A DNA stretch of 53,808 nucleotides from a virus. The DNA lies in the UHGV virus genome UHGV-0110229. One strand, given 5' to 3'. The position numbers and the translations under genes were made by a program. Below the pieces are notes generated by a model, which worked only from the letters and a program-made list of their open reading frames with translations, was not told the origin of the DNA and did not search any database. This document shows, piece by piece, positions 1-24,000 of the stretch; position 1 is the stretch's first letter; each line of letters begins with the position of its first letter.

Positions 1-1200
1 ATGCTTACAGATACCAAACTAAGAAACATCCACGGCAAGCCATACGACGGCCCGGAAGAAGTACCGGATGCGGGCGGATTGTCTGCCAGGATAAGCCCGC
101 GCGGAGTTATATCTTTCCAGTATCGCTACCGATTCAACGGCAAGCCTCGACGGATGAAGATCGGCACATACGGAGAAATAACACTTAAAGAAGCCCGCGC
201 GGCGGTGGCTGAACATAAGGAAGTGTTAAACTCAGGACGAGATCCATCAATCGTAAAAAGAATGCACTTTTCCCGCGTTACGACACGGGCAACGGTTGAG
301 GATATTGTCAGGGAGTACATGGAATCACCGCAGGCAAGAAACATGGTTAACTATAAGCAGGTTGAAGCGATGTTGAATAAGCACGTCATCAGGCCATACG
401 GTGTCTATATAGTCGATGATATGGACGCTATGATGTGGGAGGGTGTTTTTAGAAAGGTGGCTAATGGTGGTGCACCAGTTCAGGCGGGCATAGTTCTCAA
501 CAGAATGAAAGCGGTAATAAAATACGCCATGCGTCGCCGCCGCGTGGATCGTGACGACATATCGTTACTACGCGTGAAAGACGTTGGTAAAAACCCGGCG
601 CAAGGGAAGCGGGTTTTATCAATACAGGAGATTCGCCATCTAATCAGCCTTATAGACAGTTCAAAAATGGCGCGTCTAAATCAGATATTGATGAAACTGA
701 TTATATTCACCGGATGCAGGACAAGCGAGCTAACAAACGCAAGGCGAGAACATTTCGATCTTGATAACTGCGTGTGGACTGTGCCTGGTGCATTGAGTAA
801 GAACAGAAACGAGTTTAAACGCGGTTTATCCGACGTTAGCGTCGATTTATTGCGTGAGGCTATGGATCTGCATAGCTTTGATTTTGTCTTCGTTCCCGTT
901 CTTTCTGGAAGGGATGAGGCGGTGGACAGAAGCGTACCGAAAACAGCGGCAAGGGATTTAATGATGAGGATGGGCGGCGAGCCGTGGTCGTGTCACGATC
1001 TACGCCGCACCGTGAGGACAAACCTTTCAGCGCTTGGCGTTGCGCCTCACGTCGCTGAAAAGGTTTTGGGGCATAAGCTGGCGGGGATGTTGGCTATATA
1101 CGATCAGTATGACTATGTGAGGGAACAAATAGAGGCGATGAATAAGCTGGCTGATTATTACATGAAGCCCATTGATTTACAAAATGAAATAACATCCTGA
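1..1200 (+). CDS. int: Tyrosine recombinase / phage integrase (P4/CP4-57-like, arm-binding N-terminus)
   Basis: 399 aa ORF; catalytic-type motifs TGCRTSEL, HDLRRT, LGH and C-terminal Tyr (AIYDQY). ORF starts at window base 1, so the true 5' end and att site cannot be checked. Confidence 0.85.
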   Translation: MLTDTKLRNIHGKPYDGPEEVPDAGGLSARISPRGVISFQYRYRFNGKPRRMKIGTYGEITLKEARAAVAEHKEVLNSGRDPSIVKRMHFSRVTTRATVEDIVREYMESPQARNMVNYKQVEAMLNKHVIRPYGVYIVDDMDAMMWEGVFRKVANGGAPVQAGIVLNRMKAVIKYAMRRRRVDRDDISLLRVKDVGKNPAQGKRVLSIQEIRHLISLIDSSKMARLNQILMKLIIFTGCRTSELTNARREHFDLDNCVWTVPGALSKNRNEFKRGLSDVSVDLLREAMDLHSFDFVFVPVLSGRDEAVDRSVPKTAARDLMMRMGGEPWSCHDLRRTVRTNLSALGVAPHVAEKVLGHKLAGMLAIYDQYDYVREQIEAMNKLADYYMKPIDLQNEITS

Positions 1201-1376
1201 TAACGGTAAAGAGATCCGCCGCGCTTTAATGCTGGCATCCCCTTAACAGGTTCAGGGAAAGGAGTTCCCGCATCTTTCCATTTTTTAACGAGCTTAAAAA
1301 AGGCGGACTTACTAAGCCCGCCCAACATTTTTTGCACTTGCTCACGATTAATAAGTATTGTCCCGATCTTATCCAT
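1158..1376 (-). CDS. xis: Excisionase-like HTH DNA-binding protein (Xis/AlpA family)
   Basis: 72 aa; excisionase-like pattern (FPEPVKG..R..YRYQDV); convergent with int, 3' ends overlap by 43 nt. Confidence 0.5.
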   Translation of the reverse strand: MDKIGTILINREQVQKMLGGLSKSAFFKLVKKWKDAGTPFPEPVKGMPALKRGGSLYRYQDVISFCKSMGFM

Positions 1377-2038
1377 TATCTTTTCCCCGTGAATTCAACA
1401 TGTCCGATACATCCATCAATAATAGCTTGCGCCATATTGCGATAATCGCACGAAAAATCGTTGTCGTGGTTAAAGTCAATCTCTTTTGCCGCGTCTTCAC
1501 CCATGACATTGATAGCAAGTGCAAGCGCGATTTCAGATAGTGCCTTTTCTTTCGGGTCAATGTGAATGCGGTAAGAGTATTGTTTCCATGCGATTGCTGT
1601 TTCAATATCTGATACTAATTTACTGTGAGCGATAGCCCAATTATCACCGAGATATAAAAACTTGACGACATCAAGAACCGTTCCGCTGGTTACACCCATA
1701 CAATCAAGCCACACATTAACAGGAGGTTTATCACCTGCGGCCCATTCCGTTTTTTCTGGTTGTTTTTCGCAGTCATGCCGCTCATCTTCGATTAATTCAT
1801 CAATGATCTCACTTTCTTTATTCATGCCGTCATCATCCTTATTCGATAAATTAGCGTATTTATCAAATTTCCAGCTTGCAGCCATAACCGAATAAGTGCC
1901 GCCAGTGTCAGCGCGAACACCCAATAGATAGTATGATCCAAAATTATATTCTGTGCGGCATGTTGTTACCTCAAACGATGGGTAACATTCAGGGTTAGTG
2001 CGATGGCTAATCACGCCAATTGCTTTAAGTTTATTCAT
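1376..2038 (-). CDS. Hypothetical protein (distal gene of leftward early operon)
   Basis: 220 aa ORF, acidic central region; no family recognised. Confidence 0.4.
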   Translation of the reverse strand: MNKLKAIGVISHRTNPECYPSFEVTTCRTEYNFGSYYLLGVRADTGGTYSVMAASWKFDKYANLSNKDDDGMNKESEIIDELIEDERHDCEKQPEKTEWAAGDKPPVNVWLDCMGVTSGTVLDVVKFLYLGDNWAIAHSKLVSDIETAIAWKQYSYRIHIDPKEKALSEIALALAINVMGEDAAKEIDFNHDNDFSCDYRNMAQAIIDGCIGHVEFTGKR

Positions 2039-2052
2039 TTGCTTATCCTCAA

Positions 2053-2229
2053 TTACGCCACCGTTACATTGTCAACTTTGATAAAATATTCAGGATGGTT
2101 TTCTATTTCGTGCTTGAAGTGTGCGTGACACAATCGCCAATCACGCGCCTGGTTGTGAAAGTAATAAACATATTCGCCATCAATCTTATACAAAATTCCA
2201 GTAGGTTTAGCCATATAATAACGAGCCAT
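2053..2229 (-). CDS. Hypothetical small protein
   Basis: 58 aa from ATG at 2229..2227, overlapping the ninB stop (TAATG coupling); longer 76 aa version in the ORF track. Confidence 0.3.
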   Translation of the reverse strand: MARYYMAKPTGILYKIDGEYVYYFHNQARDWRLCHAHFKHEIENHPEYFIKVDNVTVA

Positions 2230-2660
2230 TATTGCCCCCAGCGTTTTATAAATTCCTCGTTTAACTTCGTATCGCCAGACCACTGAACACCGTGTTCAGC
2301 GCCGAACGAGTAGATCAGTTCGATTAATTCGCTAAATTCTGATTTACTCATCCGGCTGGTTGATGTTCCCAGCACAACAAAACCTGATTTATCCAGGTTA
2401 GGGACAACGCCATATTTCTTAAGCCCGGCAGTGAATACCGCCTTCCAGTCTTCCGGCGACAGCTTTTTGCCGTACCAATTAACCTGATCGCTAACGTCTG
2501 TCAGCAGCGCCCAAAGTAACGCGTTTTGACTCAGCGAGCGGGTTTTCTCCTGGATGGTAATGACCAGCGGGCTTTTGCTATCAGGCAGGATTTCCTTTAT
2601 CTGCCTGATAGCGTTTTCTTTTACGGCATCGTTGACTATTTCAAATCTTATTTGCCTCAT
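2229..2660 (-). CDS. ninB: NinB/Orf recombination mediator
   Basis: 143 aa; close match to lambda NinB as recalled (FEI..NAI..I.EILPD...P.VVTIQE..RSL.QN..LWA.L.DVS.QV.W.G..L..E.WK.VFTA.LK...VVPNL...GFVV.G.STSRM...EF.EL.ELI..FG.E.GV.WS). Confidence 0.8.
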   Translation of the reverse strand: MRQIRFEIVNDAVKENAIRQIKEILPDSKSPLVITIQEKTRSLSQNALLWALLTDVSDQVNWYGKKLSPEDWKAVFTAGLKKYGVVPNLDKSGFVVLGTSTSRMSKSEFSELIELIYSFGAEHGVQWSGDTKLNEEFIKRWGQ

Positions 2661-2854
2661 GATACACCGTTACTATTTTTCCACTGTGCCCGCGCATACA
2701 TGATCGCCCGCAAAGAAATTAGGCGCGAGCTTGTCATGAAAGCGCTTTTTAAGTACCTCATATCAACAACAACAGGCTTATCAGGATCGTCGCCGCGCAT
2801 GTATTCCGCAATTGTGCTTAAGTCTTCCACGGTCAAATCTAATTCCCTATTCAT
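2657..2854 (-). CDS. Hypothetical protein
   Basis: 65 aa ORF; 4-nt overlap with ninB start. Confidence 0.35.
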   Translation of the reverse strand: MNRELDLTVEDLSTIAEYMRGDDPDKPVVVDMRYLKSAFMTSSRLISLRAIMYARAQWKNSNGVS

Positions 2855-2863
2855 GGCCGCCCC

Positions 2864-3070
2864 TTACACAATCCGCATTGTGTTTCGTAACTCACCGCGC
2901 AGCGCCTGCAAAGCGTAACGAATAGGCACAAAAGCCCGGTTAAATTTTACATGCTTATACTTGCGCATTAATGGAGGCGTATAAACCATCGTGCCGCAAC
3001 GATCGCATGTGAATTTAAAGTGAGATTCGTCAATAAACGTTTCAACTGAATAAAAAATTACCCGTCTCAT
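2864..3070 (-). CDS. Hypothetical small protein
   Basis: 68 aa ORF in the operon. Confidence 0.3.
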   Translation of the reverse strand: MRRVIFYSVETFIDESHFKFTCDRCGTMVYTPPLMRKYKHVKFNRAFVPIRYALQALRGELRNTMRIV

Positions 3071-3624
3071 AATTCCAACCCCGTTTCTCCGTTAAGTTTT
3101 TCAATCTCAAATACTGGTTTATCAGGTAGCAGGTAGTTATTTTTCCGGTACTCGTTCAGGCGGCTGTCAAAGTCAAACGCCAAATCATTGGCGTGACCGA
3201 ATCGCCCAGGTTTAAACAGTGAGTAAAAATTAACCCCATGCCTATTTGGATCAACGCAAAGCGTTTCATCAATCACCATTAAACGCAGAGTACGAGAAAG
3301 ATAATTCCACGGTATACCCGTTTCAGCGCTAATGTCGCGCATACGCTTTTTAACGCTGTAGTCACCAAATAACGACGCGACACGCTCACGACGTTCAGCA
3401 TATAACTGTTTAATACGATAACCCAGCAGGCGGCGGCGGCGTCCAAAGCATGTATACACGCGCTCGACGATGCCGTTTTTTATTAAGTGTTTAATTGTCT
3501 CAGGCATGATTCCATACTTATCATACCCAGCCAATAACCCTGTTTTCTGGCGTAACTGGTGCATTGTTGCGATGCCATCAAGTTCAAGGATATTGATAAT
3601 TTTTGTTTCAATTTCAGCGCTCAT
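3067..3624 (-). CDS. Hypothetical protein
   Basis: 185 aa ORF tightly packed between helicase and nin-like genes. Confidence 0.4.
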   Translation of the reverse strand: MSAEIETKIINILELDGIATMHQLRQKTGLLAGYDKYGIMPETIKHLIKNGIVERVYTCFGRRRRLLGYRIKQLYAERRERVASLFGDYSVKKRMRDISAETGIPWNYLSRTLRLMVIDETLCVDPNRHGVNFYSLFKPGRFGHANDLAFDFDSRLNEYRKNNYLLPDKPVFEIEKLNGETGLEL

Positions 3625-3700
3625 TTTTAGCCTCGTTTAAAACGCGATAACAGCCACCAGAAAGCGGTAAACTTTCCGGTAAGCCGTTTGCTCAGATTAA

Positions 3701-5116
3701 TTAAAAAGATGTGTTATTCTGATTGTTTCGTTGGTTAAAACGGCTTGTGCGATGATTCATTGACTGAATACACGCGGCGGCGGCGCGAGCCTGGTCGCAT
3801 GGCAAGATATTACCGTTGTCATCAAACCGCTGGTAAACAGTTCCAGACTTACCATGACGGTTTTTTGACACAATGATTTCCATATATTCGCGGGCAACAG
3901 ACTGTTCATCGTAATATCCATCTCGGTAAACCATGATTATCCTGTCGGCATCTTGCTCAAGGTTGCCAGAATCACGAAGATCAGAATTGTTAGGGCGCTT
4001 GTTCGGTCGTTCCTCAACGCGGCGTGACAGTTGCGCCAGCGCCAACACTGGTACACGCAATTCTTTCGCCATCATCTTCAACGACCACGACAATTGCCCT
4101 ACAGCGAGATCGTGACGTTCGGCCTTAGCCAGCTTCATTAACCCGATGTAGTCAATCATTACCATGCCCAAATTTGGGTGATCCTGTTTCATGCGTTCCG
4201 TTGTTGCGCGTATTTCCTCAACCGTTAACTGCGACGCGTCAACGATCCACACATCAAGGTTAGCAAGTGCGCTCATGCCCTGGCCGACATGCGCCCACCC
4301 CTCATCATCAAGTTTTACCGGATTGCGCAGGCAGTCGGTTGATAAATTACCAGCGCCAGCGATGGCGCGTTCAGTCATCTGATCGAGTGACATTTCAAGC
4401 GTGAAGAACAAAACGCCAACCCGCTGATCTTTACTGCCAGGGTAAGGGCGTTCAGCGGCAGCGCGGGCAATTGCAAGCGCCAACGCAGATTTACCAGACC
4501 CAGGACGTCCAGCTAAAAGCACCAAATCAGTAGCGTTAATGCCGCCCAACATCTCATCGAGTGGATCTATCCCTGTTTTGATGTTGTCAGAATTAACACC
4601 GCATTCCATGCGCTTGCTTAAAACGTCCGTATATTCCTGTACCGCATCACGCAACAGAACAGGAATGATCTTATCTTTCGTTACCTTTAATTTTGAATAC
4701 CGGGAATCAAAATCTTTCATCGTCTCTTTGACGACCTCAAGCGTCCCCGTCTCCAGTTTGTAGCGCATATCGTCGATGAGTTCCAACATCTGCCGCCGCT
4801 GGTGCTCTTCACGTAGTAGCTGTGCGTATCCCTTAAGGTTGGCAGCAGAAGGGCACGAACGCGCCGTTTGCATTAGGGGCACGAAATTTTCATTGCCAAT
4901 CTCATCGCCAACAAGCAATGCGTCTATCAGATTCCTGTTTCTGGCTTGCGCCCGGATAACTTCAAACGCACGTTTATAAAGCGGGATCGTGAACACTTCA
5001 GGATCAAGCGTGGCGAGAACATCTTGCGCGTTAGGAGTAAGGCCACCCAACAACAGCCCGCCGATAACTGACGCCTCACGTTCCTGCCGTAGTGAGTTTA
5101 TTTGCTCAGTTACCAT
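3701..5116 (-). CDS. Replicative DNA helicase, DnaB family
   Basis: 471 aa; Walker A GRPGSGKSALALAIA; DnaB-like motifs (IDYIGLM, LAQLSR, NRHG). Confidence 0.85.
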   Translation of the reverse strand: MVTEQINSLRQEREASVIGGLLLGGLTPNAQDVLATLDPEVFTIPLYKRAFEVIRAQARNRNLIDALLVGDEIGNENFVPLMQTARSCPSAANLKGYAQLLREEHQRRQMLELIDDMRYKLETGTLEVVKETMKDFDSRYSKLKVTKDKIIPVLLRDAVQEYTDVLSKRMECGVNSDNIKTGIDPLDEMLGGINATDLVLLAGRPGSGKSALALAIARAAAERPYPGSKDQRVGVLFFTLEMSLDQMTERAIAGAGNLSTDCLRNPVKLDDEGWAHVGQGMSALANLDVWIVDASQLTVEEIRATTERMKQDHPNLGMVMIDYIGLMKLAKAERHDLAVGQLSWSLKMMAKELRVPVLALAQLSRRVEERPNKRPNNSDLRDSGNLEQDADRIIMVYRDGYYDEQSVAREYMEIIVSKNRHGKSGTVYQRFDDNGNILPCDQARAAAACIQSMNHRTSRFNQRNNQNNTSF

Positions 5117-5134
5117 TATGTTATTTCCTCCGGT

Positions 5135-6253
5135 TTACAAAATGGAAAATTCAGGGTAATAAACAAAGCGCCCGATCTCACCATGATCCGGGCTGTAGAT
5201 GATAACCGCCGCCAGGCGACGCGACCGCCATCCGCCATTAGTCGAATAAGCATCCTTACCGGCTAACGTGCCGTGGTGCTCAACAATTCCGAGCGACGTT
5301 TCAACGACTGATTGATGGTGCAGATGTCCAGTGTGCGCGTAAACAGCAACCGACTTCCCGAAATCCTCGCGCCAGTCAGAGACGCAAGCAGCCAATAAAT
5401 TTTCAGGCTTTTTGATAGTGTGCCCGTGGTGGTAAGCGAGAAATGTTTTACCGTACTGCGTGTGGTGAACGATAGCAGGTGACACATCAACCGTCACACG
5501 CGGTTCATCTTCGTAAAAAGCCGCCAGCGCCGCACGTAACCAGATCATCCCTGACTGATCGTGATTGCCTGATAACACCTGGATTTCAATATCCTTATGA
5601 TTTAACAACATCTTACCTACAGCACGCCGGACAGACCTGATCGCTACATAGACAAGTTTTGCATAACGACTATCTTGATCAAGAATGTGCCCGCTTGTTG
5701 GCGTAACCGGGACCATTCCATCAGAATGAAGCAGGTCGCCACCTAGAAGCAAAACGGCTTTTTCAGACATCGGCGCGGCGCCCACAGCGTAGTCAAAGAA
5801 GTCATTCAACACGCGCTCAGCGATCCCGGTGTCGTAGCTCTCGCCGCATTCTGCTTTGTGAGCAAGTGCGCCGATATGCAGATCAAATACCGGATAAAGG
5901 GCCAGGCTTTTTTGGAAATCAATTTCCGGCACTGGCACGGCCTCCGCGCGTGGTATTTCTTCCGTGAATGCGTCGCGGGCCGATTCCATTAGCTGTTCCA
6001 TTTCATCGCGGTCACGGGCTGTTTTAATCCAGCGCATGATCACATTGCCGTTCTTATCGACTAGCAACGACTCGCCATTGACGCCAAAACCAGGCGCGCG
6101 GCGTGTTGACAATAAACCGCGTTTCGCCAGTTTTGCCCCCAGGCGCTCTACGTTGCGTTTTGACATGCCGTACTTTTCAGCGATCTGCTTGTACGTTAAA
6201 CCGTTGTTATATTCAGCGATCAATTGCTCATCGCTTATCTTTCTTTGTGACAT
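5135..6253 (-). CDS. HTH domain fused to calcineurin-like (Mre11/SbcD-type) metallophosphoesterase
   Basis: 372 aa; N-terminal HTH (LTYKQIAEKYGMSKRNVERL); phosphoesterase motifs DLHIG, GGDLLHSD, SGNHD, YHHGH, HTGHLHH. Confidence 0.6.
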   Translation of the reverse strand: MSQRKISDEQLIAEYNNGLTYKQIAEKYGMSKRNVERLGAKLAKRGLLSTRRAPGFGVNGESLLVDKNGNVIMRWIKTARDRDEMEQLMESARDAFTEEIPRAEAVPVPEIDFQKSLALYPVFDLHIGALAHKAECGESYDTGIAERVLNDFFDYAVGAAPMSEKAVLLLGGDLLHSDGMVPVTPTSGHILDQDSRYAKLVYVAIRSVRRAVGKMLLNHKDIEIQVLSGNHDQSGMIWLRAALAAFYEDEPRVTVDVSPAIVHHTQYGKTFLAYHHGHTIKKPENLLAACVSDWREDFGKSVAVYAHTGHLHHQSVVETSLGIVEHHGTLAGKDAYSTNGGWRSRRLAAVIIYSPDHGEIGRFVYYPEFSIL

Positions 6254-6287
6254 AGTGTCATTTCCTCACGAATAACAAATTGTATAC

Positions 6288-7028
6288 TTAGTTACAAGTT
6301 AAAAGCTCAGTGATCCATACTTGTCCTTTAGCAGTGAATACAGCCTGCTCATATCCATCGTGAGTTACCCTCATTTCACCGTAGCCCTCATCAATAAACC
6401 ACTGACTGAATACACGGCGGCGACAGCGAAGATCGTAAACACCAACCGCCGAAAGTTTTCTGTTTAATTTTACGGCTGACATTCCCAGCGGTTTAGCTAC
6501 CTCTGAAGCCGTTCGGTGCATATCGTTTTTGACTATCGCGTCACATACAGCCGCTTTCGGAGCCAGCACCTTGTTTTCAAGCGTAAGCCGTTCATTTTCT
6601 TTCTTAACTAACAATTTTTGCTCAACCTCATCCGCCCATGCGCGGGCTGCCGCAACCGGATCAGTGAAATCCGGCAAAGCTAGTTTGTGTTGCGCCTCCT
6701 CCAACTCTTTAACGCGTTTAATTACCTTCATGCGTTGCTTAACGTCATAGCCAGTGATCAAGCACATTGTTAGCTCTTTATTTAGCAAAACCTCATCAAT
6801 GACGTTGCGACCTTTGTACTGCTTGTACTTAAACAAAAACCCTATAAATTCAAAATCCTGCATTTTTGCAGGATAAAAATCATGTTCAGTAAACCCTAAA
6901 TCTAGCAGCATGTTTTTAATATCACGCACAACCACAGAAGAATGATCCTTGTCTGTTGCTTCTGCTATTTCACGCGATGAAATCATTAATACTTCGCTAT
7001 CGACATCAAAAACCATCAATTCAGACAT
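6288..7028 (-). CDS. Rha-family regulator with KilA-C (antirepressor-type) C-terminal domain
   Basis: Start taken at MSELMVFDV (GGAGAAAA RBS upstream); N-terminus Rha-like, C-terminus KilA-C-like; ORF track gives a longer 6288..7088 version. Confidence 0.55.
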   Translation of the reverse strand: MSELMVFDVDSEVLMISSREIAEATDKDHSSVVVRDIKNMLLDLGFTEHDFYPAKMQDFEFIGFLFKYKQYKGRNVIDEVLLNKELTMCLITGYDVKQRMKVIKRVKELEEAQHKLALPDFTDPVAAARAWADEVEQKLLVKKENERLTLENKVLAPKAAVCDAIVKNDMHRTASEVAKPLGMSAVKLNRKLSAVGVYDLRCRRRVFSQWFIDEGYGEMRVTHDGYEQAVFTAKGQVWITELLTCN

Positions 7029-7160
7029 TGTATTTTCTCCGTAAAACGCGCTACAACGCAAAAATCCCACCGCGTAACCCGTTTGCACAGGTTGCAGTGT
7101 CTTATTGCGTTATAGACGCTCTCAGGTGGCTAATTTTTGATTTACAGGATGGTATGAAGG

Positions 7161-7262
7161 TTATAGATTGACCAGAAGGAACAAACCGCCGAACAAAGCG
7201 ACGTTAACGGCGATTGCAGCAGCGATGGCAAAAGCCAGGGCAAAAACGTGTTTACCGTCCAT
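7161..7262 (-). CDS. Possible small hydrophobic peptide (33 aa, single TM)
   Basis: MDGKHVFALAFAIAAAIAVNVALFGGLFLLVNL with GAGAGG RBS; sits in the gap between the replication initiator and Rha genes. Confidence 0.25.
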   Translation of the reverse strand: MDGKHVFALAFAIAAAIAVNVALFGGLFLLVNL

Positions 7263-7395
7263 TTTGAAATCCTCTCTAAAACGCTCTCTAACGAGATAAA
7301 TAGCTAAAGGTATGCAAGTGTAGCACTCAATGCTTTTTAGCTCGCTGGTGAGCTTGTTTTGCGGGTAATTTTGTGTTTTTGCGTATCGTGTTTGG

Positions 7396-8454
7396 TCAAA
7401 GAGCGCCACATCGTGTATCACGTAGCGTTTTTGGTTTAAGCAGGAAATCAAGTGTCGCAGTGAAGCCATCGCCGAAGTAAAAATCTGAAGCATTGTTTTT
7501 GAACGTTTCAAAGTAGGCGACAAAGCCGTTAATGCTTTTGTCTTTCAGGTAGTCAGTGAACGCATAAATCTTGCGTTCAAGATCCCGATCCAGTTCGGCA
7601 GGTGGCAACATGCCATCAAACGTGCTGTTAAATGCCTCCACTACGTCGGCAGCGTTTGCAGTGGCTGACAGTTTGCGCCATTTTTCAGCATCAGCCAGAT
7701 ACCCATCAAATTTAGTCACCCGGCAAATGTTTATAGGCTTAGGTGTTCCACCACGGCTACGCCATTGCGTTAAAGCCCACTCAATCACTAATGTGATCTC
7801 ATCCTCCGTATACGCTTTACGTGTTTTTGTTTCTGTCAGTAGTTCTACGAATGGCTTAGCATCACGACACTTGCATCCTGCCTTGTCGTTGTAGAAGGCC
7901 AGACAACGCAACGCCGCTTCGTTTACGCCATCCTGACTGACCGTTTTTTGTTCATTTTCGACAATACACGAAGTGTATATATCTTTTTCTCTTTCTTCTT
8001 CTTCTTCTAATTCTAATTCATGACCCTTTCCTGACCCTGTCATGACCCTATCATGACCTTTTTGTGTTTGATTGATTAGCTTTTCTAATTTTAATTGCTC
8101 CTTAGCTGTGTTTATTGCTGCCCTGTATGCGCTTTTAGAAGTCATTGATTGGTCAAGCCTTTTCAATAACTTTAAACAAGTTATGTGGCCCTGAGAACAT
8201 TCGAATAAACCAATTTCGATAAAGTATTTCATCATTTCTTCTATGCGCTTTTCAGTAGATCCTACGTTTCGCGCAATGATTCTTGCATCGTGTCGAAGGT
8301 CAAAATTAAGGTTGTGCTGATCTACGTCGTAAGTTATCAGTTCGAGGCAATACCAATAAAGACCGTAACCTTCCAGGCCATAATCTAATAAAACGTTTTG
8401 AAGTTTTTCATCGCGGTTCGCATCGCTATCATGCTTAAACCACTTCATAATCAT
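7396..8454 (-). CDS. Putative replication initiation protein (phage O/DnaD-like)
   Basis: 352 aa; N-terminus MKWFKHDSD..YGLEGYGLYWY resembles phage replisome-organiser N-terminal domains; acidic linker; sits upstream of the helicase. Confidence 0.5.
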   Translation of the reverse strand: MIMKWFKHDSDANRDEKLQNVLLDYGLEGYGLYWYCLELITYDVDQHNLNFDLRHDARIIARNVGSTEKRIEEMMKYFIEIGLFECSQGHITCLKLLKRLDQSMTSKSAYRAAINTAKEQLKLEKLINQTQKGHDRVMTGSGKGHELELEEEEEREKDIYTSCIVENEQKTVSQDGVNEAALRCLAFYNDKAGCKCRDAKPFVELLTETKTRKAYTEDEITLVIEWALTQWRSRGGTPKPINICRVTKFDGYLADAEKWRKLSATANAADVVEAFNSTFDGMLPPAELDRDLERKIYAFTDYLKDKSINGFVAYFETFKNNASDFYFGDGFTATLDFLLKPKTLRDTRCGAL

Positions 8455-8705
8455 TCCTCCGGCAACATAACTACATAGACACCACTAAACGCATCAATAC
8501 GGCAAACAAACCCTTTGCTAATTAATGCGGCGAAGGCATCATGTACCGTATGAACAGGAAGTTCACACATTTTTGCTACTTCTTCGCGTGATACGCTTGT
8601 CCGCCCCTGGCTATCCGCCGTCTCAGCAAGGGCGATCAAAACTAGTTTTTGAATCGGGCTGTTAAGTTTTACGTTCCATGCTTTGCTAATTATGTTCATG
8701 CTCAT
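8451..8705 (-). CDS. HTH DNA-binding protein, first gene of leftward early operon (Cro/cII-position)
   Basis: 84 aa from ATG at 8705..8703 with AGGAG RBS; HTH-like segment REEVAKMCELPVHTVHDAFAAL; divergent from cI. Confidence 0.45.
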   Translation of the reverse strand: MSMNIISKAWNVKLNSPIQKLVLIALAETADSQGRTSVSREEVAKMCELPVHTVHDAFAALISKGFVCRIDAFSGVYVVMLPEE

Positions 8706-8814
8706 CGTGTTTTCTCCTATGGTTAGAGTGAACGCGCTGGCGGGCATCCAATTAGCATTAGATAGCAGTGACTGACCGCTCAACAGATCCCGCCGTTGCG
8801 TGATATTTGTTTTT

Positions 8815-8846: not shown

Positions 8847-8887
8847 TTTTAAGGTATGTTCCTTTTGTGCTTTCCATTATCTTTTTT

Positions 8888-9659: not shown

Positions 9660-9664
9660 ACACT

Positions 9665-9819: not shown

Positions 9820-9852
9820 AAGGAGGAAGCAAGGCAGGGAAAGAAGGTTACT

Positions 9853-17193: not shown

Positions 17194-17290
17194 AATTTAC
17201 AAAATGGCGTCATTGCGTGATGTGGATCACATAATGGCGCTTTTTACCTTGTTCTGACGTATCCATTTTGTATACTTCAAACAAGCAAAA

Positions 17291-17325
17291 TGCTCTTTAA
17301 AAATCCGGCAGCGCTGAAATGCGTA
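17291..17325 (+). promoter_or_regulatory. Internal nut-like site (boxA + weak hairpin) upstream of the ninF/ninG-like genes
   Basis: TGCTCTTTAAAAATCCGG then CGC-TGAAAT-GCG; the 17-mer GCTCTTTAAAAATCCGG is identical to the leftward nut-like site. Confidence 0.4.
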
Positions 17326-17352: not shown

Positions 17353-17529
17353 ATGCCTTTTGATAATTACCAATGGCATGACGACTATGAACGAGAAAGC
17401 GTCATGCGTGCAATGTGCAATGTATGCAGCACGAAGAAAGGAGACTGCAACGAGTGCAACGAATGTTTAGATCATTGGCTAAAGGCCGGACACGCCGAAA
17501 GGCTGAACGAAACAGAGAATCAAAAATAA
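17353..17529 (+). CDS. Small Cys-rich protein (NinF-position)
   Basis: 58 aa MPFDNYQWHDDYERESVMRAMCNVCSTKKGDCNECNECLDHW..; strong RBS GGAGAGAGCA; just upstream of ninG. Confidence 0.35.
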   Translation: MPFDNYQWHDDYERESVMRAMCNVCSTKKGDCNECNECLDHWLKAGHAERLNETENQK

Positions 17530-17543: not shown

Positions 17544-18149
17544 ATGCAAAACCCTAAAAAACCCATAAGACGCCGTTGCAAATGCTGCGGCGTTTTTTTT
17601 GAGCCTAAATATCACAATCAAACATGGTGCAGCGATGAATGTCTGGAAGAACTGAAATTTGATCAGCTATGTCGCGATCGTGAGAAGGCTATGAAGGCTA
17701 TGGAACGGAAGAAACGCCGTGATAGCCAGCGTGAGGAACGCAACCGGAAGCGGAAGCAGTTAAATCCGCGCAGCTACTGGATTAAACAGGCGCAAAACGT
17801 TTTTAACGCTTATATACGCGAGCGTGACGCGCTATTGCCGTGCATATCATGCGGGACTTACTACGGTGAGCAATGCGGGTGGGATGCAGGCCATTACAGG
17901 ACGGTAGCCGCCGCCGGACACCTTCGCTTTAACGATGATAATTGTCACAAGCAATGCAGGCACTGCAACCAGACACTAGACGGCAACATCGGAGGGTATC
18001 GCCCTGCGCTGATTCGAAAAATTGGCCTCGCCAGGGTAGTAGCTCTGGAGAACAACAACGAAACTCACAAATGGACGATAGAAGAATGCAAGGAAATCAT
18101 AAAAGTCTATCAGGCTAAATTAGACGCCTTAAGGAGAAAGGCAGCATGA
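17544..18149 (+). CDS. ninG: NinG/Rap-family recombination protein
   Basis: Start at MQNPKKP (17544); Cys-rich N-terminus (RRCKCCGVFFEP) and conserved HYRT..G..RFN..NCHKQCRHCN pattern typical of NinG. Confidence 0.7.
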   Translation: MQNPKKPIRRRCKCCGVFFEPKYHNQTWCSDECLEELKFDQLCRDREKAMKAMERKKRRDSQREERNRKRKQLNPRSYWIKQAQNVFNAYIRERDALLPCISCGTYYGEQCGWDAGHYRTVAAAGHLRFNDDNCHKQCRHCNQTLDGNIGGYRPALIRKIGLARVVALENNNETHKWTIEECKEIIKVYQAKLDALRRKAA

Positions 18150-18559
18150 ACGAATATACATTTAGCCTACCTTACCCGCCATCGAATAACCGCTATTACC
18201 GACATTCGCGCGGTTTTCACTATATAAGCAAAGTTGGGAAGGAATATCGGGAACAAGTAAGAGACATCATCGAGCTATTAAATTTAAACATTAACCTACC
18301 TTGCCGACTGGCAATCGCCATCTATGCCGCGCCGCCGGATAACCGGATCAGAGATCTGGATAATATCCCTAAATGCCTTTTTGATAGCCTTACCTATGCC
18401 GGATTTTGGAAGGATGACGGGCAAATTGACTCAATAAAAATTGTCCGCTGCCGGAAGGTAAAAGGCGGACGCTTGTTTATTAAGATCCGCGAACGCGGCG
18501 ACCTGCTACCGGATATTGACGAATACGCGACGAATACGTGGGGGTTACAATGGAGCTAA
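18146..18559 (+). CDS. rusA: RusA Holliday junction resolvase
   Basis: 137 aa; signature LPYPPSNNRYY and D-containing catalytic region. Confidence 0.85.
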   Translation: MNEYTFSLPYPPSNNRYYRHSRGFHYISKVGKEYREQVRDIIELLNLNINLPCRLAIAIYAAPPDNRIRDLDNIPKCLFDSLTYAGFWKDDGQIDSIKIVRCRKVKGGRLFIKIRERGDLLPDIDEYATNTWGLQWS

Positions 18560-18786: not shown

Positions 18787-18965
18787 AAAACGAAATTAAA
18801 GATCTGCAAATAGATATTCAGCGCGATGAGCATGATTTAGAAACGGTCCGACAAATCCAGGCTTTTCATATGCGCGAATTGCTTGCATTGAAAGAGCTTG
18901 AGAGAAAGTTAGTTCAGTCTATTTCTGATCGTAAACACCTTATTGCTCGTTACGGGGGCAAGTAA
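18783..18965 (+). CDS. Hypothetical protein
   Basis: 60 aa ORF. Confidence 0.3.
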   Translation: MKNEIKDLQIDIQRDEHDLETVRQIQAFHMRELLALKELERKLVQSISDRKHLIARYGGK

Positions 18966-19687
18966 TGAATCTGGAATCTATTCTCAAATTCCACTTCCCA
19001 AAATCACCGCGTTTATCAGATGAAAGCCGGGGCACGTCCCCGGATGCACTTAATACTACGGATGCACTAACAGCAGCAGGCATGGCGCAATCGCGCGTAG
19101 AGCTTGGTTATAGCGCTTTTTTAGGGAAGATGGAACTATCACAAGCCGAAAAACATAAGGCCGTAGTTTTGCTTACAGAGCGTTTAAGGACTATGGCAAA
19201 AGATTATGAATACGTTATGGAACTGGACGAGGCCAAACGCAATGATCTTATTATTCTTGTTGCCGTTTTCGCGTTTCGGGATTATTGCCAAAGCGCCGCG
19301 ACGGAAAAAACTTGCCCGGAGTGCGGCGGATATAAATTTACGTTTGACGACTACGGAGAAAAACACCTTTGCAAAAAATGCAAGGGGCATGGGACAGTTC
19401 GCAATCATTGTAAACAATGCAAGGGCCGTGGCGAAGTACCGGATAAAGCAGCCAGTGAAGCGGCGGAAATGCCAGTGTTCAAAACGTGCCAGCATTGCGG
19501 CGGGCGCGGGTACTCGCGTTTCCCTGTAGATCTTGTACGGCAGGCGGTTAATCAGCTTGTTTTTCCGGTAAGCCGATCAACATGGTGGAAAAAGTACCGG
19601 GCTTTCTATGAAGACGCCATTGCTGAATTGTTCAAAGAAGAGGCGCTGGCAGATAACGAAATTAAAAGAGTGACGCGGGGTGAATGA
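18965..19687 (+). CDS. DnaJ-type zinc-finger protein (4x CxxCxGxG); positional candidate for late antiterminator Q
   Basis: 240 aa; four motifs CPECGG, CKKCKGHG, CKQCKGRG, CQHCGGRG; located after ninG/rusA where Q sits in lambdoid phages; function not established. Confidence 0.4.
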   Translation: MNLESILKFHFPKSPRLSDESRGTSPDALNTTDALTAAGMAQSRVELGYSAFLGKMELSQAEKHKAVVLLTERLRTMAKDYEYVMELDEAKRNDLIILVAVFAFRDYCQSAATEKTCPECGGYKFTFDDYGEKHLCKKCKGHGTVRNHCKQCKGRGEVPDKAASEAAEMPVFKTCQHCGGRGYSRFPVDLVRQAVNQLVFPVSRSTWWKKYRAFYEDAIAELFKEEALADNEIKRVTRGE

Positions 19688-19890
19688 TGGATAAGCTGGA
19701 AATAAACGATCAGTTTGCTGTTATCTTGTTCGAAGATAAAACGGGCGGTGCATGGTGTAAGAAAGTCACTGGTGCGGAAGCACGATTAATATTGGGTATG
19801 GCAAGCGCGTTAAATGATGGTGAATTGCCAGCCGTACCAGTTGAGCCAGTACATATTTACGGACGGAATAAAGATAATGAAAATAATTAA
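19684..19890 (+). CDS. Hypothetical protein
   Basis: 68 aa ORF. Confidence 0.3.
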   Translation: MMDKLEINDQFAVILFEDKTGGAWCKKVTGAEARLILGMASALNDGELPAVPVEPVHIYGRNKDNENN

Positions 19891-20224
19891 TATTGGGTGG
19901 CTGTATTGCGAAAACTGCGACGACGATGGTATGGTCGTAAAAACTGAAAAAGGTTGCGGCTTCATGCTGTATCAAGGTGATAAATTCGTTTGTCCTCGCT
20001 GCGGCGGCGGTGGTGAGATAGAAATCGTTAATGATATTGCTACAGCACATAAGCCATCTCGCATTGTCCTTGATGAAAAAATAAAAATTCATCCTGATTT
20101 ATTACAGCAAATTATCGATCACGTATCGGCAGCCGCAATCTATAGCGATAACAATTATCAGCGTGAAATGAACGTCAAACGTGCTATTAAGCAGTATTTC
20201 GAGGTTGACGACAATGAAGCCTAA
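19877..20224 (+). CDS. Hypothetical zinc-ribbon protein
   Basis: ATG 19877; CENC..CPRCGG motifs. Confidence 0.35.
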   Translation: MKIINIGWLYCENCDDDGMVVKTEKGCGFMLYQGDKFVCPRCGGGGEIEIVNDIATAHKPSRIVLDEKIKIHPDLLQQIIDHVSAAAIYSDNNYQREMNVKRAIKQYFEVDDNEA

Positions 20225-20486
20225 ATTAAAGGAACATCTATTTGCAAAACTGGTTAACGAATTAACGGAAACGGCACACCATTACGCTGGAACACAACAG
20301 CTACGCGGACGGTTGTCTTCAGTTGTCAACCGTTACATTGATGCAGGATGTCACCGCAAAGGTGAAATGACTATGGACAAGGCCATCAAGCGCCGTTCGG
20401 CTGAATGGTCAGTGAGTAACACCGGATTAACCGGATACATTGAAGGCTATAACGACTGTTTACAGGATCATAGCAATGAAAAGTAA
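20214..20486 (+). CDS. Hypothetical protein
   Basis: ATG 20214 within track ORF 20181..20486. Confidence 0.3.
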   Translation: MKPKLKEHLFAKLVNELTETAHHYAGTQQLRGRLSSVVNRYIDAGCHRKGEMTMDKAIKRRSAEWSVSNTGLTGYIEGYNDCLQDHSNEK

Positions 20487-20694
20487 CCGCAAGCGCCTTG
20501 TAAGGGCATATGACAAAGCATTAAAGGCTTTTGATGATCTGCGAAGCAATAAGCGCCAGCGCCGCAAATGGGCGCGCATGCTTGTTCATGAATGGCATTA
20601 TCCTGATGCTGCCTTGATAGAAGGTGCACCGCCATTTACACAGGAACAAGCCGACGAAGTAGCTAACGATAACGTTTATTATATGATGTGGTGA
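20476..20694 (+). CDS. Hypothetical protein
   Basis: ATG 20476 within track ORF 20440..20694. Confidence 0.3.
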   Translation: MKSNRKRLVRAYDKALKAFDDLRSNKRQRRKWARMLVHEWHYPDAALIEGAPPFTQEQADEVANDNVYYMMW

Positions 20695-20698
20695 TAAT

Positions 20699-21064
20699 AT
20701 GCAAATAATCATTGATTATCTTTGTCATGCTGCAAATACGCTTTTTGGTTTTTATCAACAACCATTCCTCAAAGAATGGGACGAAATGCTGAATGACATC
20801 ATTGATAAAGGGTTAATAATGGAGGTTGACGATCTCACAATCAAATTTAATTACGATGGTAAAGAATATCTAATTTGGGTTGGTAATAGATGGTATTCAT
20901 ACGGTCATATTTATTCAATTGGTGGTAAGTTCATTAAAAGAAACCAGGAATTTAGGCCACGCTTCCGCACAATGCGCCGCCTGCATGACCTGCATATGAA
21001 GATATTTGAAGATCAGGAAGAGCGCGAACTATTCAAGATCTACGGGGATAAATCATGGAATTAA
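20699..21064 (+). CDS. Hypothetical protein
   Basis: 121 aa ORF. Confidence 0.35.
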   Translation: MQIIIDYLCHAANTLFGFYQQPFLKEWDEMLNDIIDKGLIMEVDDLTIKFNYDGKEYLIWVGNRWYSYGHIYSIGGKFIKRNQEFRPRFRTMRRLHDLHMKIFEDQEERELFKIYGDKSWN

Positions 21065-21285
21065 AAATCTGGCAGGCTATCGACGTAGTTGATAATGCGT
21101 TATCTATGTTCGCCACCGATGGGAAACGCGTAGCAATCACTACATGGACGCGCAACTATGATGATATTTCTTTTCGTCGCAGAACGGCGGAGTGGTTTTT
21201 CTCTGAAGGCGGCTACACGATGAACATCGCACAGCTTGCCAGAATGAAAGATGAAAAGCTGGTGGACAGCTACACAACTGCGTAA
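21055..21285 (+). CDS. Hypothetical protein
   Basis: 76 aa ORF. Confidence 0.3.
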   Translation: MELKIWQAIDVVDNALSMFATDGKRVAITTWTRNYDDISFRRRTAEWFFSEGGYTMNIAQLARMKDEKLVDSYTTA

Positions 21286-21295
21286 CGGGGTAAAT

Positions 21296-21529
21296 ATGCG
21301 TATCTATGAACACAAGCGGGATAAAACCCGCTTTTTTGTTCGTGCTGGCGTGGCGTACCAGTATCACGAATGCGGTTACATTGAGGCGCTTGCTTACGAT
21401 CTGGACTTCGAGCAAGAAAAGGAATGGTTCGATTTTAAAATTTACCGTAAGCGCAAACCAACTCGCGACGAGCGCCACGCTATCCGTGAATTTTTAATCA
21501 GCATTGAACGTTGGGAGACAGAAGAGTGA
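21296..21529 (+). CDS. Hypothetical protein
   Basis: ATG 21296 (MRIYEHK) within track ORF 21251..21529. Confidence 0.3.
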   Translation: MRIYEHKRDKTRFFVRAGVAYQYHECGYIEALAYDLDFEQEKEWFDFKIYRKRKPTRDERHAIREFLISIERWETEE

Positions 21530-21753
21530 AAGTTAAATTCTTGCACGATCACGGTTATCCGTCACTGAAACAGGTTGTTGGTAAGGTTGTTAACGTCGTC
21601 CATAGCGATGATGTCACTTGCATGATTAACGGTGCTGATTTAATCGCCGCTGGCGCTGATGATCATTACATCAATCCTGCCTGGTCGTATACGTTCAGCC
21701 TGGGTGACTTCGTTGGCGACAAGGGGCGCGGGCTGGAAGTAGTCGAGGGTTAA
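21526..21753 (+). CDS. Hypothetical protein
   Basis: GTG start overlapping previous stop, GGGAGA RBS. Confidence 0.3.
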   Translation: MKVKFLHDHGYPSLKQVVGKVVNVVHSDDVTCMINGADLIAAGADDHYINPAWSYTFSLGDFVGDKGRGLEVVEG

Positions 21754-21757
21754 CATC

Positions 21758-22006
21758 ATGGACGTTTACGAAGATCTATACCTCCAGACAAACACCCGCA
21801 CTTTTTATTTTCTGAAAAACGGCGTCGTATATCGCAGCGACGACGGGGTAATAATGAAGGAGTGGTTATTTAAGCGTAAAGACCTACTCGACGATCTGGT
21901 TTTTGCCGGGATATTTCGTAAACGTCCGGCTAACCTGGAAGAAGAAATGTTGATTGAGGTATATCAAAATGAAAATCAGGGTAAGTTATTTCCGGGCGAA
22001 AGATAA
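21758..22006 (+). CDS. Hypothetical protein
   Basis: 82 aa ORF. Confidence 0.3.
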   Translation: MDVYEDLYLQTNTRTFYFLKNGVVYRSDDGVIMKEWLFKRKDLLDDLVFAGIFRKRPANLEEEMLIEVYQNENQGKLFPGER

Positions 22007-22220
22007 GGCAACAGGAAAGCAGATGGCGATCCTGGTAAACGAGGCCAATTACATGTTTGTGCTTCAACCGTGGTGTATAGCTGACTATAACGATAATTAT
22101 CGCCGCCACAGCGCGCGTGGTGCTGTAGGGATGAAAGGCTGGCAGCCGCGCGACATGGAAAGCTATTGTGAATGGAAGCTGATAGCAAAATACACGGTCG
22201 ATTATAAAGGTGTGTTCTGA
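21969..22220 (+). CDS. Hypothetical protein
   Basis: ATG 21969 with GAGGT RBS; overlaps the previous ORF by 38 nt, so one of the two may be wrong. Confidence 0.3.
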   Translation: MKIRVSYFRAKDKATGKQMAILVNEANYMFVLQPWCIADYNDNYRRHSARGAVGMKGWQPRDMESYCEWKLIAKYTVDYKGVF

Positions 22221-22330
22221 TGGTATTGCTTTCACGCAATAAATATAAAACGTGATCTACCTCGCAAAATATACGAAATGGCATTGTTTCGGCAGTGCCA
22301 TTTTGTTATATATAAGCCACCGAAAGACGG

Positions 22331-22642
22331 ATGGGCAAAATCATGAAAAGCAATAAATTCATAGCGTGCTGTTTTGTTGAAGTACCTGAAGGTGATGTCT
22401 TCTGCAATTACGAATTTAAAGACAGTTGGGGAAAATCTCATGTTGTAGTTGGCAAGCGCGGGGACTGGTTATACATAACAGACGATGACATGATTTTTAC
22501 TGTAAGCCAGTTATTCAAAATTAAGTCAGAAAATAGTGAAGCACCACTTTGCAGAATGTTTAACATGCATTATCACTCACTATTATTGTTAAAACAAGAT
22601 GTTGTAAACAAAGCGCGTAGCTTACCTGGTGCCGAATTTTAA
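22331..22642 (+). CDS. Hypothetical protein (AT-rich cargo island)
   Basis: 103 aa ORF; preceded by an inverted repeat/hairpin at 22276-22303. Confidence 0.35.
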   Translation: MGKIMKSNKFIACCFVEVPEGDVFCNYEFKDSWGKSHVVVGKRGDWLYITDDDMIFTVSQLFKIKSENSEAPLCRMFNMHYHSLLLLKQDVVNKARSLPGAEF

Positions 22643-22665
22643 TTTCTTACGAAGGAGAATGACAA

Positions 22666-22866
22666 ATGTCTAAATTTATCAGCGTTAAAGTTTTTCGTGG
22701 CACTTTTCCAGAAGATGAAAAAAATGGACAATTCGCCGGACAACCTGGCGCATGTTTCCGTGTAGCAACTGACAACGAAGATTGCGTAAAATGCTACCAC
22801 GTATCTGAACCTCCTTTTGACGTGAAATATCTTGATAATGCAGATCACGTTAAATTTTTATCTTAG
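22666..22866 (+). CDS. Hypothetical protein
   Basis: 66 aa ORF with strong RBS GAAGGAGA. Confidence 0.35.
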   Translation: MSKFISVKVFRGTFPEDEKNGQFAGQPGACFRVATDNEDCVKCYHVSEPPFDVKYLDNADHVKFLS

Positions 22867-22965
22867 TATCATTGGAACTTAATCCATTCCCTGGTGATGA
22901 AGTGGAATTGATTGGCGCTGAACTGGTCGCTGAATACAAAATGACTGAAGGTGTAACAGGGGGAA

Positions 22966-23220
22966 TTGACATTGAGCGCATCAAGTAAGCTATACAAGAT
23001 CAGGTGTAAAGGCGAATATCCTGGCTTTACGACTGGTTGCGAATACCTGGGCCATATTGGGTACGGCCCTTTCGGCGAATTAGGGATGAATACGCTGGAC
23101 GACGATGGCGACAACAGGACGCTTGATCTTGATTCTGATGATTTCGAATACATCCCGCCAGTAACTTACCGCGTGGTTGATGAGTTCCTGGCTGAACATG
23201 AAGACGATGAGGATGATTAA
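22966..23220 (+). CDS. Hypothetical acidic protein (start uncertain, TTG only)
   Basis: 84 aa ORF without in-frame ATG near 5' end; an upstream TTG-start ORF 22872..22988 overlaps in another frame. Confidence 0.2.
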   Translation: MTLSASSKLYKIRCKGEYPGFTTGCEYLGHIGYGPFGELGMNTLDDDGDNRTLDLDSDDFEYIPPVTYRVVDEFLAEHEDDEDD

Positions 23221-23344
23221 ATGGAAGATTGGTATAAAAATTTGCTAATTATGTTTCTTTCTGAAAATTGGGCGCTATTTGAGCGTTTTTGCGAGGAACA
23301 TGGAGAAGACCCTAACGATATTTATCACGATCTTGGGGGTGAAG

Positions 23345-23545
23345 ATGATTGAATGCCTTATTATTGCGGTTATTATCATTTACCTGGCTGGCGTCATTTT
23401 AATGGGCGCTTTTCAGAAAGCTGTTGATAGTGACGGCATTATTTGGTTCGAGCTAGTCTTCTGGCCTTTCATTACGATATACGCATTCAGTGACGCTATG
23501 CGTATTAACATCATGCGAGCCATTAAGGAGCGCAAAAATGATTGA
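23345..23545 (+). CDS. Small membrane protein
   Basis: 66 aa MIECLIIAVIIIYLAGVILMGAF.., GGGGGTGA RBS. Confidence 0.35.
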   Translation: MIECLIIAVIIIYLAGVILMGAFQKAVDSDGIIWFELVFWPFITIYAFSDAMRINIMRAIKERKND

Positions 23546-23720
23546 AGATGGCGTGTACGCGGCAACAGTAGTTGAAAGGCTGTTTTACCGCGTAGAAGGC
23601 GATGATATTCGTATCCGCGTTGGCGGTGGCGAGTGGGTAGCGCCAATCATTAAGACGACGCGAGAAACAATTAAAATATTTCTTGATGCTGGCGAACTGG
23701 TGAAGGTTGGCGACCTATGA
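23538..23720 (+). CDS. Hypothetical small protein (MIEDGVY paralogue 1)
   Basis: 60 aa; AGGAG RBS. Confidence 0.3.
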   Translation: MIEDGVYAATVVERLFYRVEGDDIRIRVGGGEWVAPIIKTTRETIKIFLDAGELVKVGDL

Positions 23721-23893
23721 ATGAGATCGAAGATGGCATCTATTTGCATAAGGTATTCAACATCGCTTATTTGGTTAGAGGTGAAGCGGTGATGATAAGA
23801 CCTGATGACGTTCCGTATTGGGAATTAAGCGACATGGATCGGTGGCACATGCAAATGCTACTTGATAATGGACTGATATACAGAAAGCGGTAA
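23717..23893 (+). CDS. Hypothetical small protein (MNEIEDGIY paralogue 2)
   Basis: 58 aa; N-terminal similarity to the preceding ORF. Confidence 0.3.
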   Translation: MNEIEDGIYLHKVFNIAYLVRGEAVMIRPDDVPYWELSDMDRWHMQMLLDNGLIYRKR

Positions 23894-23958
23894 AGCCGTA
23901 TTTGTGGGTCGAAAACAAACAGATTAAAATATTACCTAACAATGCGAAAGTGTAACTA

Positions 23959-23980
23959 CCCGGCCCCGTGCCGGGTTTTT
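23959..23980 (+). terminator. Rho-independent terminator upstream of lysis cassette
   Basis: CCCGGC-CCCGT-GCCGGG followed by TTTTT. Confidence 0.6.
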
Positions 23981-24000
23981 GCTTTGTTGGAGGTAAATCT

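Follow-up and report, generated by a model that had tools for sequence, protein, structure and literature searches.

The mEpimmI phages were described in 2025 as a group of temperate siphoviruses, frequent in human faeces, which are Nus-dependent and do not belong to the lambdoid phages (PMC11893012). The group spans 9 genera and 45 species, and the 48 genomes analysed show 'high synteny' with 50 core genes (PMC11893012). Isolated members make plaques and lysogenise, viable hybrids with lambda do not form, and integration occurs at ydaM, abgT or mppA according to the integrase type, type II being linked to abgT (PMC11893012). The repressor Rep021 prevents infection by group members; the group repressor has no Ala-Gly cleavage site and most lysogens are not UV-inducible (PMC11893012). 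The mEp021 antiterminator Gp17 and its three nut sites have been characterised experimentally in work cited in the same study, which places nutL and nutR1 upstream of the repressor gene and of gp17, respectively, and nutR2 after a methyltransferase gene (PMC11893012). Here we analysed the virus genome UHGV-0110229, a stretch of 53,808 nucleotides (hereafter the window), with emphasis on positions 1-24000, which carry the integrase, replication, immunity, recombination and Q genes. The window is very probably the complete or nearly complete genome of an mEp021-like temperate siphovirus of Escherichia coli, and its positions 1-24000 correspond, with the same high confidence, to the standard plan of this group, in which the lambdoid early order is flipped as a block.

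Positions 1-24000 are ~90% identical to mEp010, mEp044, mEp554, mEp013, mEp515 and mEp021 over 73-91% of the length, and ~88% identical to MagusPhagus over 56%. Positions 24001-48900 are covered at 81-96% by the relatives with 86-91% identity, and the identity to MagusPhagus is ~86-88% overall. The order and strand of 17 marker genes are the same in 43/43 IMG/VR contigs carrying the same repressor, when contig-end losses and the presence or absence of two accessory genes are disregarded. The region is found on the chromosome in 50 of 5,426 complete E. coli genomes, with at least 80% of the query in one collinear place in 27 of them, and the same strand layout is present in the mEp021 record (MH706966, deposited in 2018) and in the annotation of E. 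coli strain 127. A repressor search among GTDB species-representative genomes gave 32 pattern matches, none of which was confirmed, and at that stringency no sign of the group outside E. coli. Everything that defines the mEpimmI phages and can be tested on sequence was found in the window, i.e., overall similarity, Rep021, Gp17, three nut sites and core synteny. Its layout is already known as the architecture of a published phage group (PMC11893012). The first-pass annotation had taken this layout for a clear sign of modular reassortment in this genome; it is instead the fixed plan of the whole group (PMC11893012).

The listing of open reading frames (ORFs) places int (1-1200) on the plus strand, followed by an unbroken minus-strand gene block (1158-8783) and by plus-strand genes from 9012 to the window end. 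The GC skew, negative in the first 9 kb, turns positive beyond them; a change of sign at ~9 kb is expected, since the direction of transcription switches there. The GC content is even across both junctions (~1.2 kb and ~8.9 kb). ORF list and skew thus agree with the leftward replication/NinB block and the rightward N-Erf-SSB-NinG-RusA-Q-lysis series proposed in the first-pass annotation, which had also correctly recognised the departure from the lambda/P22 arrangement and the division of the nin genes (ninB to the left, ninG and rusA to the right). Most of its gene identities are likewise confirmed by Pfam and PHROG profiles, including those of NinB, the helicase and Erf, on which it had made its proposal depend and which hold up on homology search. 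It had let the leftward operon run toward xis and int; int lies on the plus strand and is therefore convergent with this operon, not downstream in it.

The relationship with lambda (NC_001416) becomes apparent when homologous genes are compared directly. The lambda order is cI(-), NinB(+), NinG(+), Q(+), Rz(+), whereas that of the window is NinB(-), cI(+), NinG(+), Q(+), Rz(+), so that, with NinG, Q and Rz as the reference, NinB and cI have swapped places and changed strand. The NinB proteins of the window and of lambda are 55% identical. We surveyed 80 IMG/VR loci encoding NinB, 30 of the mEp type and 50 of the lambda type; NinB identity is 94-99% in the former versus 55-57% in the latter, without intermediates. 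When NinB is set to the plus strand, both classes read SSB/Erf or Bet(-), N(-), cI(-) / O(+), helicase or P(+), NinB(+). The sole difference lies in what comes after NinB. In lambda-type loci, NinG (17/17), RusA (25/25), Q (25/25) and lysozyme (35/35) lie downstream on the same strand, with Dam between NinB and NinG, whereas in mEp-type loci NinB is followed by a convergent int (18/18) and not by NinG, RusA, Q or lysozyme. The piecemeal reshuffling of modules implied by the first-pass annotation does not agree with this result, since SSB-Erf-N-cI / O-helicase-NinB is the internal order of the 50 lambda-type loci too and the flanks alone differ. A Stenotrophomonas phage with a related initiator has the canonical layout too.

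These homologies suggest that the arrangement is best described as a single flipped block, a lambda-type early region turned round with respect to int and the Dam-NinG-RusA-Q-late genes. The nin genes would be split because one end of the flipped block falls after NinB; the other end would fall in the interval from SSB (11.4 kb) to Dam (14.9 kb), given that Dam has remained on the NinG side. The window does not follow the canonical lambdoid order int-xis-recombination-N-cI / cro-cII-O-P-nin-Q-lysis-morphogenesis. What is added here to the published description is modest: the early region is canonical inside and flipped as a block, as deduced from direct homologues and from the 80-locus survey. 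The gene identities, the nut sites, the conservation and the geometry of the flip are all direct results of the present comparison.

The immunity region ties the window both to mEp021 and to the lambda plan. The repressor is 99% identical to Rep021 (212/215 residues) and 31% identical to lambda CI. Distantly related repressors (36% identity; loci L047-L049) are encoded by ordinary lambdoid loci with cro, cII and O; in L048 (IMGVR_UViG_2846609383_000014), a canonical cro (HTH_3), CII (CP76) and an O-like gene stand beside the 36%-identical repressor at 6374-9911. In the immunity region and the small early ORFs of the window, no Cro- or CII-like ORF was detected by Pfam or PHROG, and a divergent Cro could escape such profiles. 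The gene taken for Cro from its position (8451-8705) is excluded as such by its matches to the winged-helix domain of O-type initiators: all seven PHROG matches fall on the N-termini of initiator profiles. Its 4-nt overlap with the start of the O-like gene suggests that the two ORFs are one O-type initiator split in two, with this gene as the DNA-binding part. Of the lambdoid CI/Cro switch with CII, the window thus has CI, and its first replication-side gene encodes an O-type winged-helix domain.

The boxA sequence GCTCTTTAA occurs exactly three times in the 53.8 kb, at 8846-8838 (-), 9854 (+) and 17292 (+), with a small hairpin downstream of each after a short spacer, and the three sites match the published positions of nutL, nutR1 and nutR2 (PMC11893012). 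The window Gp17 carries all the arginines named as conserved in the group (R17, R19, R20 and R24); its match to Pfam N_peptide is below threshold (E 0.0085), and no homologue outside the group was found in the phage collection searched. Since the repressor gene is framed by nutL and nutR1 as an inverted repeat pair, the leftward replication operon is predicted to be a Gp17/Nus-antiterminated unit like the rightward one. For Gp17/nut function, Nus dependence and repressor function, we rely on the cited mEp021 work. With Gp17, three boxA/boxB sites and a Q protein of family PF03589, the window has the N/nut and Q antitermination components expected of a lambdoid phage, the Q target site being a putative one. 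A duplication of nutR2 together with a promoter was considered and rejected, as the likeness among the three nut regions is limited to boxA, spacer and boxB. Promoters were assigned by consensus scans and are candidates (Table 1). The 12-mer ACAAAATGTRTT is present at the repressor-gene promoter candidate and beside the rightward -35 element; because it is not enriched over shuffled sequences (22 matches versus 16.5 +/- 4 expected), we claim no operator.

Several observations weigh against a lambda-type early region flipped as a block. The flip is only a formal equivalence, because neither an intermediate genome nor a breakpoint scar was found; its right-hand breakpoint is placed no finer than the SSB-Dam interval, and a single inversion does not account for the orientation of int, which calls for another change. 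No Cro or CII by which the lytic switch could be thrown was found, and the promoters are consensus matches only, of which shuffled sequence yields at least as many as this region. One may ask whether the architecture ever derived from a lambda-like plan or was assembled independently and merely shares widespread phage genes. The structural genes and the whole proteome do set the group apart from lambdoid phages (PMC11893012), and the lack of Gp17 homologues outside the group and of Cro and CII points the same way. However, SSB-Erf-N-cI / O-helicase-(Ren-like)-NinB and, separately, Dam-NinG-RusA-Q-holin-lysozyme-Rz equal lambdoid loci gene by gene, and the nut site before N, the iterons within O and the rightward early promoter after the repressor gene are all placed as in lambda, so that we regard an independent assembly as improbable.

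We give far less credence to a recent, lineage-specific reassortment that would have produced a one-off mosaic of lambdoid modules in unusual orientations. The genes are individually mosaic, several being homologous to genes of lambda or P22; group members differ in the N-terminal half of the O-like protein, and accessory genes such as those for Rha and a C5-methyltransferase come and go. Yet order and orientation are invariant in all members sampled of a group with such taxonomic breadth (PMC11893012), and the NinB identities leave an empty gap between the group and lambdoid phages; together, the gap and the invariant order argue for an old, stable lineage. The two strand switches and the divided nin region could also suggest a chimera, whether a faulty assembly or a pair of neighbouring prophages, with the join close to the immunity region or where int meets the leftward operon; the first-pass annotation had itself envisaged a misassembly of two prophages. 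Both junctions are collinear in seven independently sequenced plaque-forming phages, in all 43 IMG/VR contigs and in the 50 complete E. coli chromosomes; the GC content does not change over them, and nutL and nutR1 are a matched pair. Because the join is conserved in isolated phages, contigs and chromosomes alike, we discard this explanation with near certainty and retain the flipped lambda-type early region as the description of the window.

Table 1. Features of the window, in order of position, with the evidence for each.
Feature	Position	Strand	Evidence and remarks
Tyrosine integrase	1-1200	+	Pfam Arm-DNA-bind_3, Phage_int_M, Phage_integrase; convergent with leftward operon
Small DNA-binding ORF in xis/AlpA position, last gene of leftward operon	1158-1376	-	phrog_4745 'DNA binding protein', E 3.8e-4
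NinB (Orf-family recombination mediator)	2229-2660	-	PF05772, E 1.5e-47
185-residue protein directly after helicase	3067-3624	-	phrog_1687, E 1.1e-9 (MarR-like, weak); phrog_142 'Ren-like', E 3.2e-4 (weak)
DnaB-type replicative helicase	3701-5116	-	DnaB_C, E 1.8e-75; DnaB N-terminal domain, E 5.4e-12
Metallophosphatase-type 'DNA repair exonuclease' with N-terminal HTH	5135-6253	-	phrog_704, E 3.6e-141
Rha/KilAC antirepressor-like protein, accessory	6288-7088	-	Pfam ANT, Phage_pRha; phrog_63
O-like replication initiator	7396-8454	-	Pfam Lin1244_N; phrog_20981/428/345 ('replication initiation O-like')
Winged-helix ORF (84 residues), first gene of leftward operon	8451-8705	-	phrog_4617, E 1.6e-21, and six more 'replication initiation' PHROGs
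nutL, boxA GCTCTTTAA and boxB hairpin on leftward transcript	8814-8846	-	same as mEp021 over 55 nt
Leftward promoter candidate, TTGACC-16-TAAACT	8952-8925	-	consensus scan, inferred
Repressor-gene promoter candidate, TTAACA-17-TACATT	8941-8969	+	consensus scan; divergent from and overlapping leftward candidate
CI/LexA-type repressor	9012-9659	+	HTH_3 and Peptidase_S24
Intrinsic terminator t1 after repressor gene	9665-9682	+	scan; fold -13.8 kcal/mol, z -3.5
Rightward early promoter candidate, TTGACT-17-TATATT	9782-9810	+	top promoter match in 1-13000, 10/12 positions
nutR1, boxA and boxB hairpin GCCGC-TGGAAGT-GCGGC	9854-9890	+	boxA scan, fold
N-like antiterminator Gp17	9947-10237	+	98% identical (94/96) to mEp021 Gp17; arginine-rich motif R17, R19, R20, R21, R24
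Kil-like ORF (40 residues) between N-like gene and erf	10268-10390	+	Pfam Lambda_Kil, E 2.2e-4, under curated cut-off (weak)
Erf recombinase	10387-11028	+	PF04404, E 8e-43
SSB	11028-11444	+	PF00436, E 1e-22
Ipe homologue ('inducer of pleiotropic effects')	14640-14891		97% identical to mEp021 Ipe
Dam-type N6-adenine methyltransferase	14901-15440	+	PF05869, E 2.4e-51
Terminator t4, just upstream of nutR2	17205-17241	+	-20.9 kcal/mol, z -5.1, then UUUUU; TERM_4 in mEp021 record
nutR2, boxA and boxB	17292-17324	+	same as mEp021 over 55 nt; first 17 nt identical to nutL
NinG	17544-18149	+	PF05766, E 2e-67; 54% identical to lambda NinG
RusA	18146-18559	+	PF05866, E 3.9e-15
Q antiterminator	18965-19687	+	PF03589, E 4.5e-30; 35% identical to lambda Q, full length
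~20 small ORFs, 4.2 kb between Q and lysis genes	19684-23893	+	ORF lists; hypothetical in mEp021 and strain 127 annotations
Late promoter candidate	23902-23976	+	-10 TAAAAT at 23925-23930, 7 nt, -10-like AACAAT at 23938-23943, then terminator t5
Terminator t5, just before holin	23958-23976	+	terminator scan and fold
Lysis cassette: holin, lysozyme, Rz	24001-25152	+	Phage_holin_2_3, Phage_lysozyme, Phage_lysis

The integrase shares 94% identity with the one encoded by a prophage that E. coli strain 127 carries in abgT, beside ogt and fnr. The first three letters of the window are the int ATG and its last three are the stop codon of the final tail-fibre gene (50482-53808), as if a prophage had been cut down to its outermost genes; host flanks and the att sites (attL/attR or attP) are accordingly not included. 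The ORF that ends the leftward operon had been named xis in the first-pass annotation, an identity left unconfirmed by its weak DNA-binding PHROG match and by the lack of any Pfam or NCBIfam match. A strong terminator-like hairpin followed by a T-run (10 pairs, 6 of them G-C) is located at 1301-1323 (-), inside the coding sequence of this ORF and near the meeting point of the leftward operon with the 3' end of int.

In the replication module, the C-terminal 86 residues of the O-like initiator exhibit 37% identity to the end of P22 gp18. Inside its gene, at 8017-8062, an iteron-like array of 4.2 copies of the 11-nt unit TTCATGACCCT is located beside a TCT/TTCTAA-rich, A/T-rich run, at the place where the two halves of the protein join. 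These repeats are a candidate replication origin, placed as in lambda O. The Rha/KilAC gene, present in the leftward operon here, is found in some group loci only and is absent from many members.

In the rightward operon, a stable terminator hairpin is present at 14265-14289. The mEp021 Ipe protein causes HlyE-dependent haemolysis in lysogens, and the several in-frame starts described for its gene, ORF-4 (PMC6379469), also occur in the window homologue. The ORF at 17353-17529 is named NinF in the mEp021 record, a name that neither Pfam nor NCBIfam supports. The small ORFs between Q and the lysis genes vary between group members; lambda has only ~0.7 kb in this place.

The 107-nt spacer between the last of these small ORFs and the holin gene (23894-24000) is near-invariant in six genomes, with a variable ORF upstream. 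Its geometry, TAAAAT-7 nt-AACAAT-terminator, resembles that of lambda pR' (TAAATT, 6 nt, AACGAT) with its pause element and tR', AACGAT being the pause-inducing element of pR'. No DNA homology to lambda pR'/qut was detected in 19600-24050. Because the window Q is of the lambda family, we infer from this geometry that the spacer likely holds the Q-dependent late promoter, which would lie ~4.2 kb downstream of Q rather than adjoining it. The Rz protein of the following lysis cassette is 34% identical to lambda Rz. Further downstream, the plus-strand tail cluster contains islands of minus-strand ORFs around the tape-measure gene (37079-37495, 40124-40850 and 41602-41998); the GC skew dips locally at these islands, which are probably morons. 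The superinfection-exclusion lipoprotein genes of the group are reported to be in the tail gene cluster. Rfam (at gathering thresholds) and tRNA scans gave nothing in the whole window.

From these elements, the genome can be proposed to work as follows. Two N-dependent early operons would diverge from the immunity region at ~8.9-9.8 kb. The leftward transcript would start at the promoter candidate at ~8952-8925, pass nutL and read the split O-like initiator with its probable internal origin, then accessory genes, the DnaB helicase, the Ren/MarR-like gene, NinB and the small DNA-binding protein, ending head-to-head with int. On the other side, the repressor gene would have its own promoter candidate and t1, and the main early promoter would lead through nutR1 to Gp17, then to the Kil-like ORF, Erf, SSB, accessory genes and Dam and, past t4 and nutR2, to NinG, RusA and Q. 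Beyond Q, ~4.2 kb of small ORFs would precede the probable Q-dependent late promoter/terminator just upstream of the holin gene, and the lysis and virion genes would follow. In this layout, Q is fed by the N/recombination operon and not by the replication operon, and int is not readable from the recombination-side early promoter. Antiterminated transcription would reach Q across ~9 kb and several terminators, and the second downstream nut site, nutR2, may help it to do so. With the replication genes on a separate arm, the expression of Q would no longer be transcriptionally coupled to that of O and the helicase. The cascade from N through Q to the late genes is probably preserved, and the different control of late gene expression expected in the first-pass annotation is for this reason only partly right: the other early operon feeds Q and a third nut site is present, but Q still ends the rightward N-dependent operon upstream of the lysis genes.

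As a discovery, this layout carries little weight, since the sequences of the group date from 2018 and its detailed description from 2025. It is of value as a worked example, in which a lambda-type cascade (CI, N/nut, Q) still works with the early region flipped relative to the integration and late modules. Viewing the early region as a single flipped block tempers the 'non-lambdoid' label and turns the third nut site and the missing Cro and CII into concrete questions in common gut coliphages. It is conceivable, if rather doubtful, that the one-block flip of a complete lambda-type early region put Q on the N/recombination operon and made nutR2, a near copy of nutL after t4, necessary to reach it, leaving a switch without Cro or CII that perhaps operates via the O-type winged-helix protein or an antirepressor, and that this explains the absence of viable lambda hybrids. 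If true, this would provide a mechanistic cause for that absence despite the shared NinB, NinG, Q, Rz and CI homologues.

Compared with lambda, the window thus has a CI-type repressor between two early promoter regions, an N-type antiterminator with boxA/boxB nut sites, and Q. As in lambda, N-kil-recombinase lie on one side and O with internal iterons, helicase function, ren and NinB on the other, followed in the series by NinG/RusA-Q-holin-endolysin-Rz; the weak Ren/MarR-like gene occupies the ren position and the weak Kil-like ORF lies between the N-like gene and erf. Lambda pL is downstream of cI-rex, and the main rightward early promoter candidate of the window is likewise downstream of the repressor gene and its terminator. 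Unlike in lambda, the replication operon points toward int, the N/recombination operon leads into NinG-Q-late genes and int is convergent. The window has no recognisable Cro, CII or CIII, three nut sites versus two, a DnaB-type helicase in place of P, Erf and SSB in place of Exo/Bet/Gam, Q ~4.2 kb upstream of the lysis genes, and unrelated virion genes.

P22 resembles the window in having the Erf module on the N (gene 24) side, the gp18 C-terminus and a DnaB-type helicase (the gp12 analogue) followed by NinB. It differs in its canonical orientation, erf-24-c2 / cro-c1-18-12-nin-23-lysis, in encoding Cro and C1, and in being a podovirus.

The closest match remains that with the mEpimmI phages. 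In mEp010, mEp013 and mEp044, the integrase is of the same type (type II) as that of the window. The leftward operon of mEp021 contains HNH, zinc-ribbon and N4/N6-methyltransferase genes, whereas that of the window has none of these and has a Rha/KilAC gene. The O-like N-terminal half closest to that of the window is the one of MagusPhagus (96%), rather than those of mEp010 or mEp021. Gene order, strands, the three nut sites, the Ipe gene and the lysis cassette are the same in the mEpimmI phages and in the window, and the differences between them are confined to accessory content and allelic variation.

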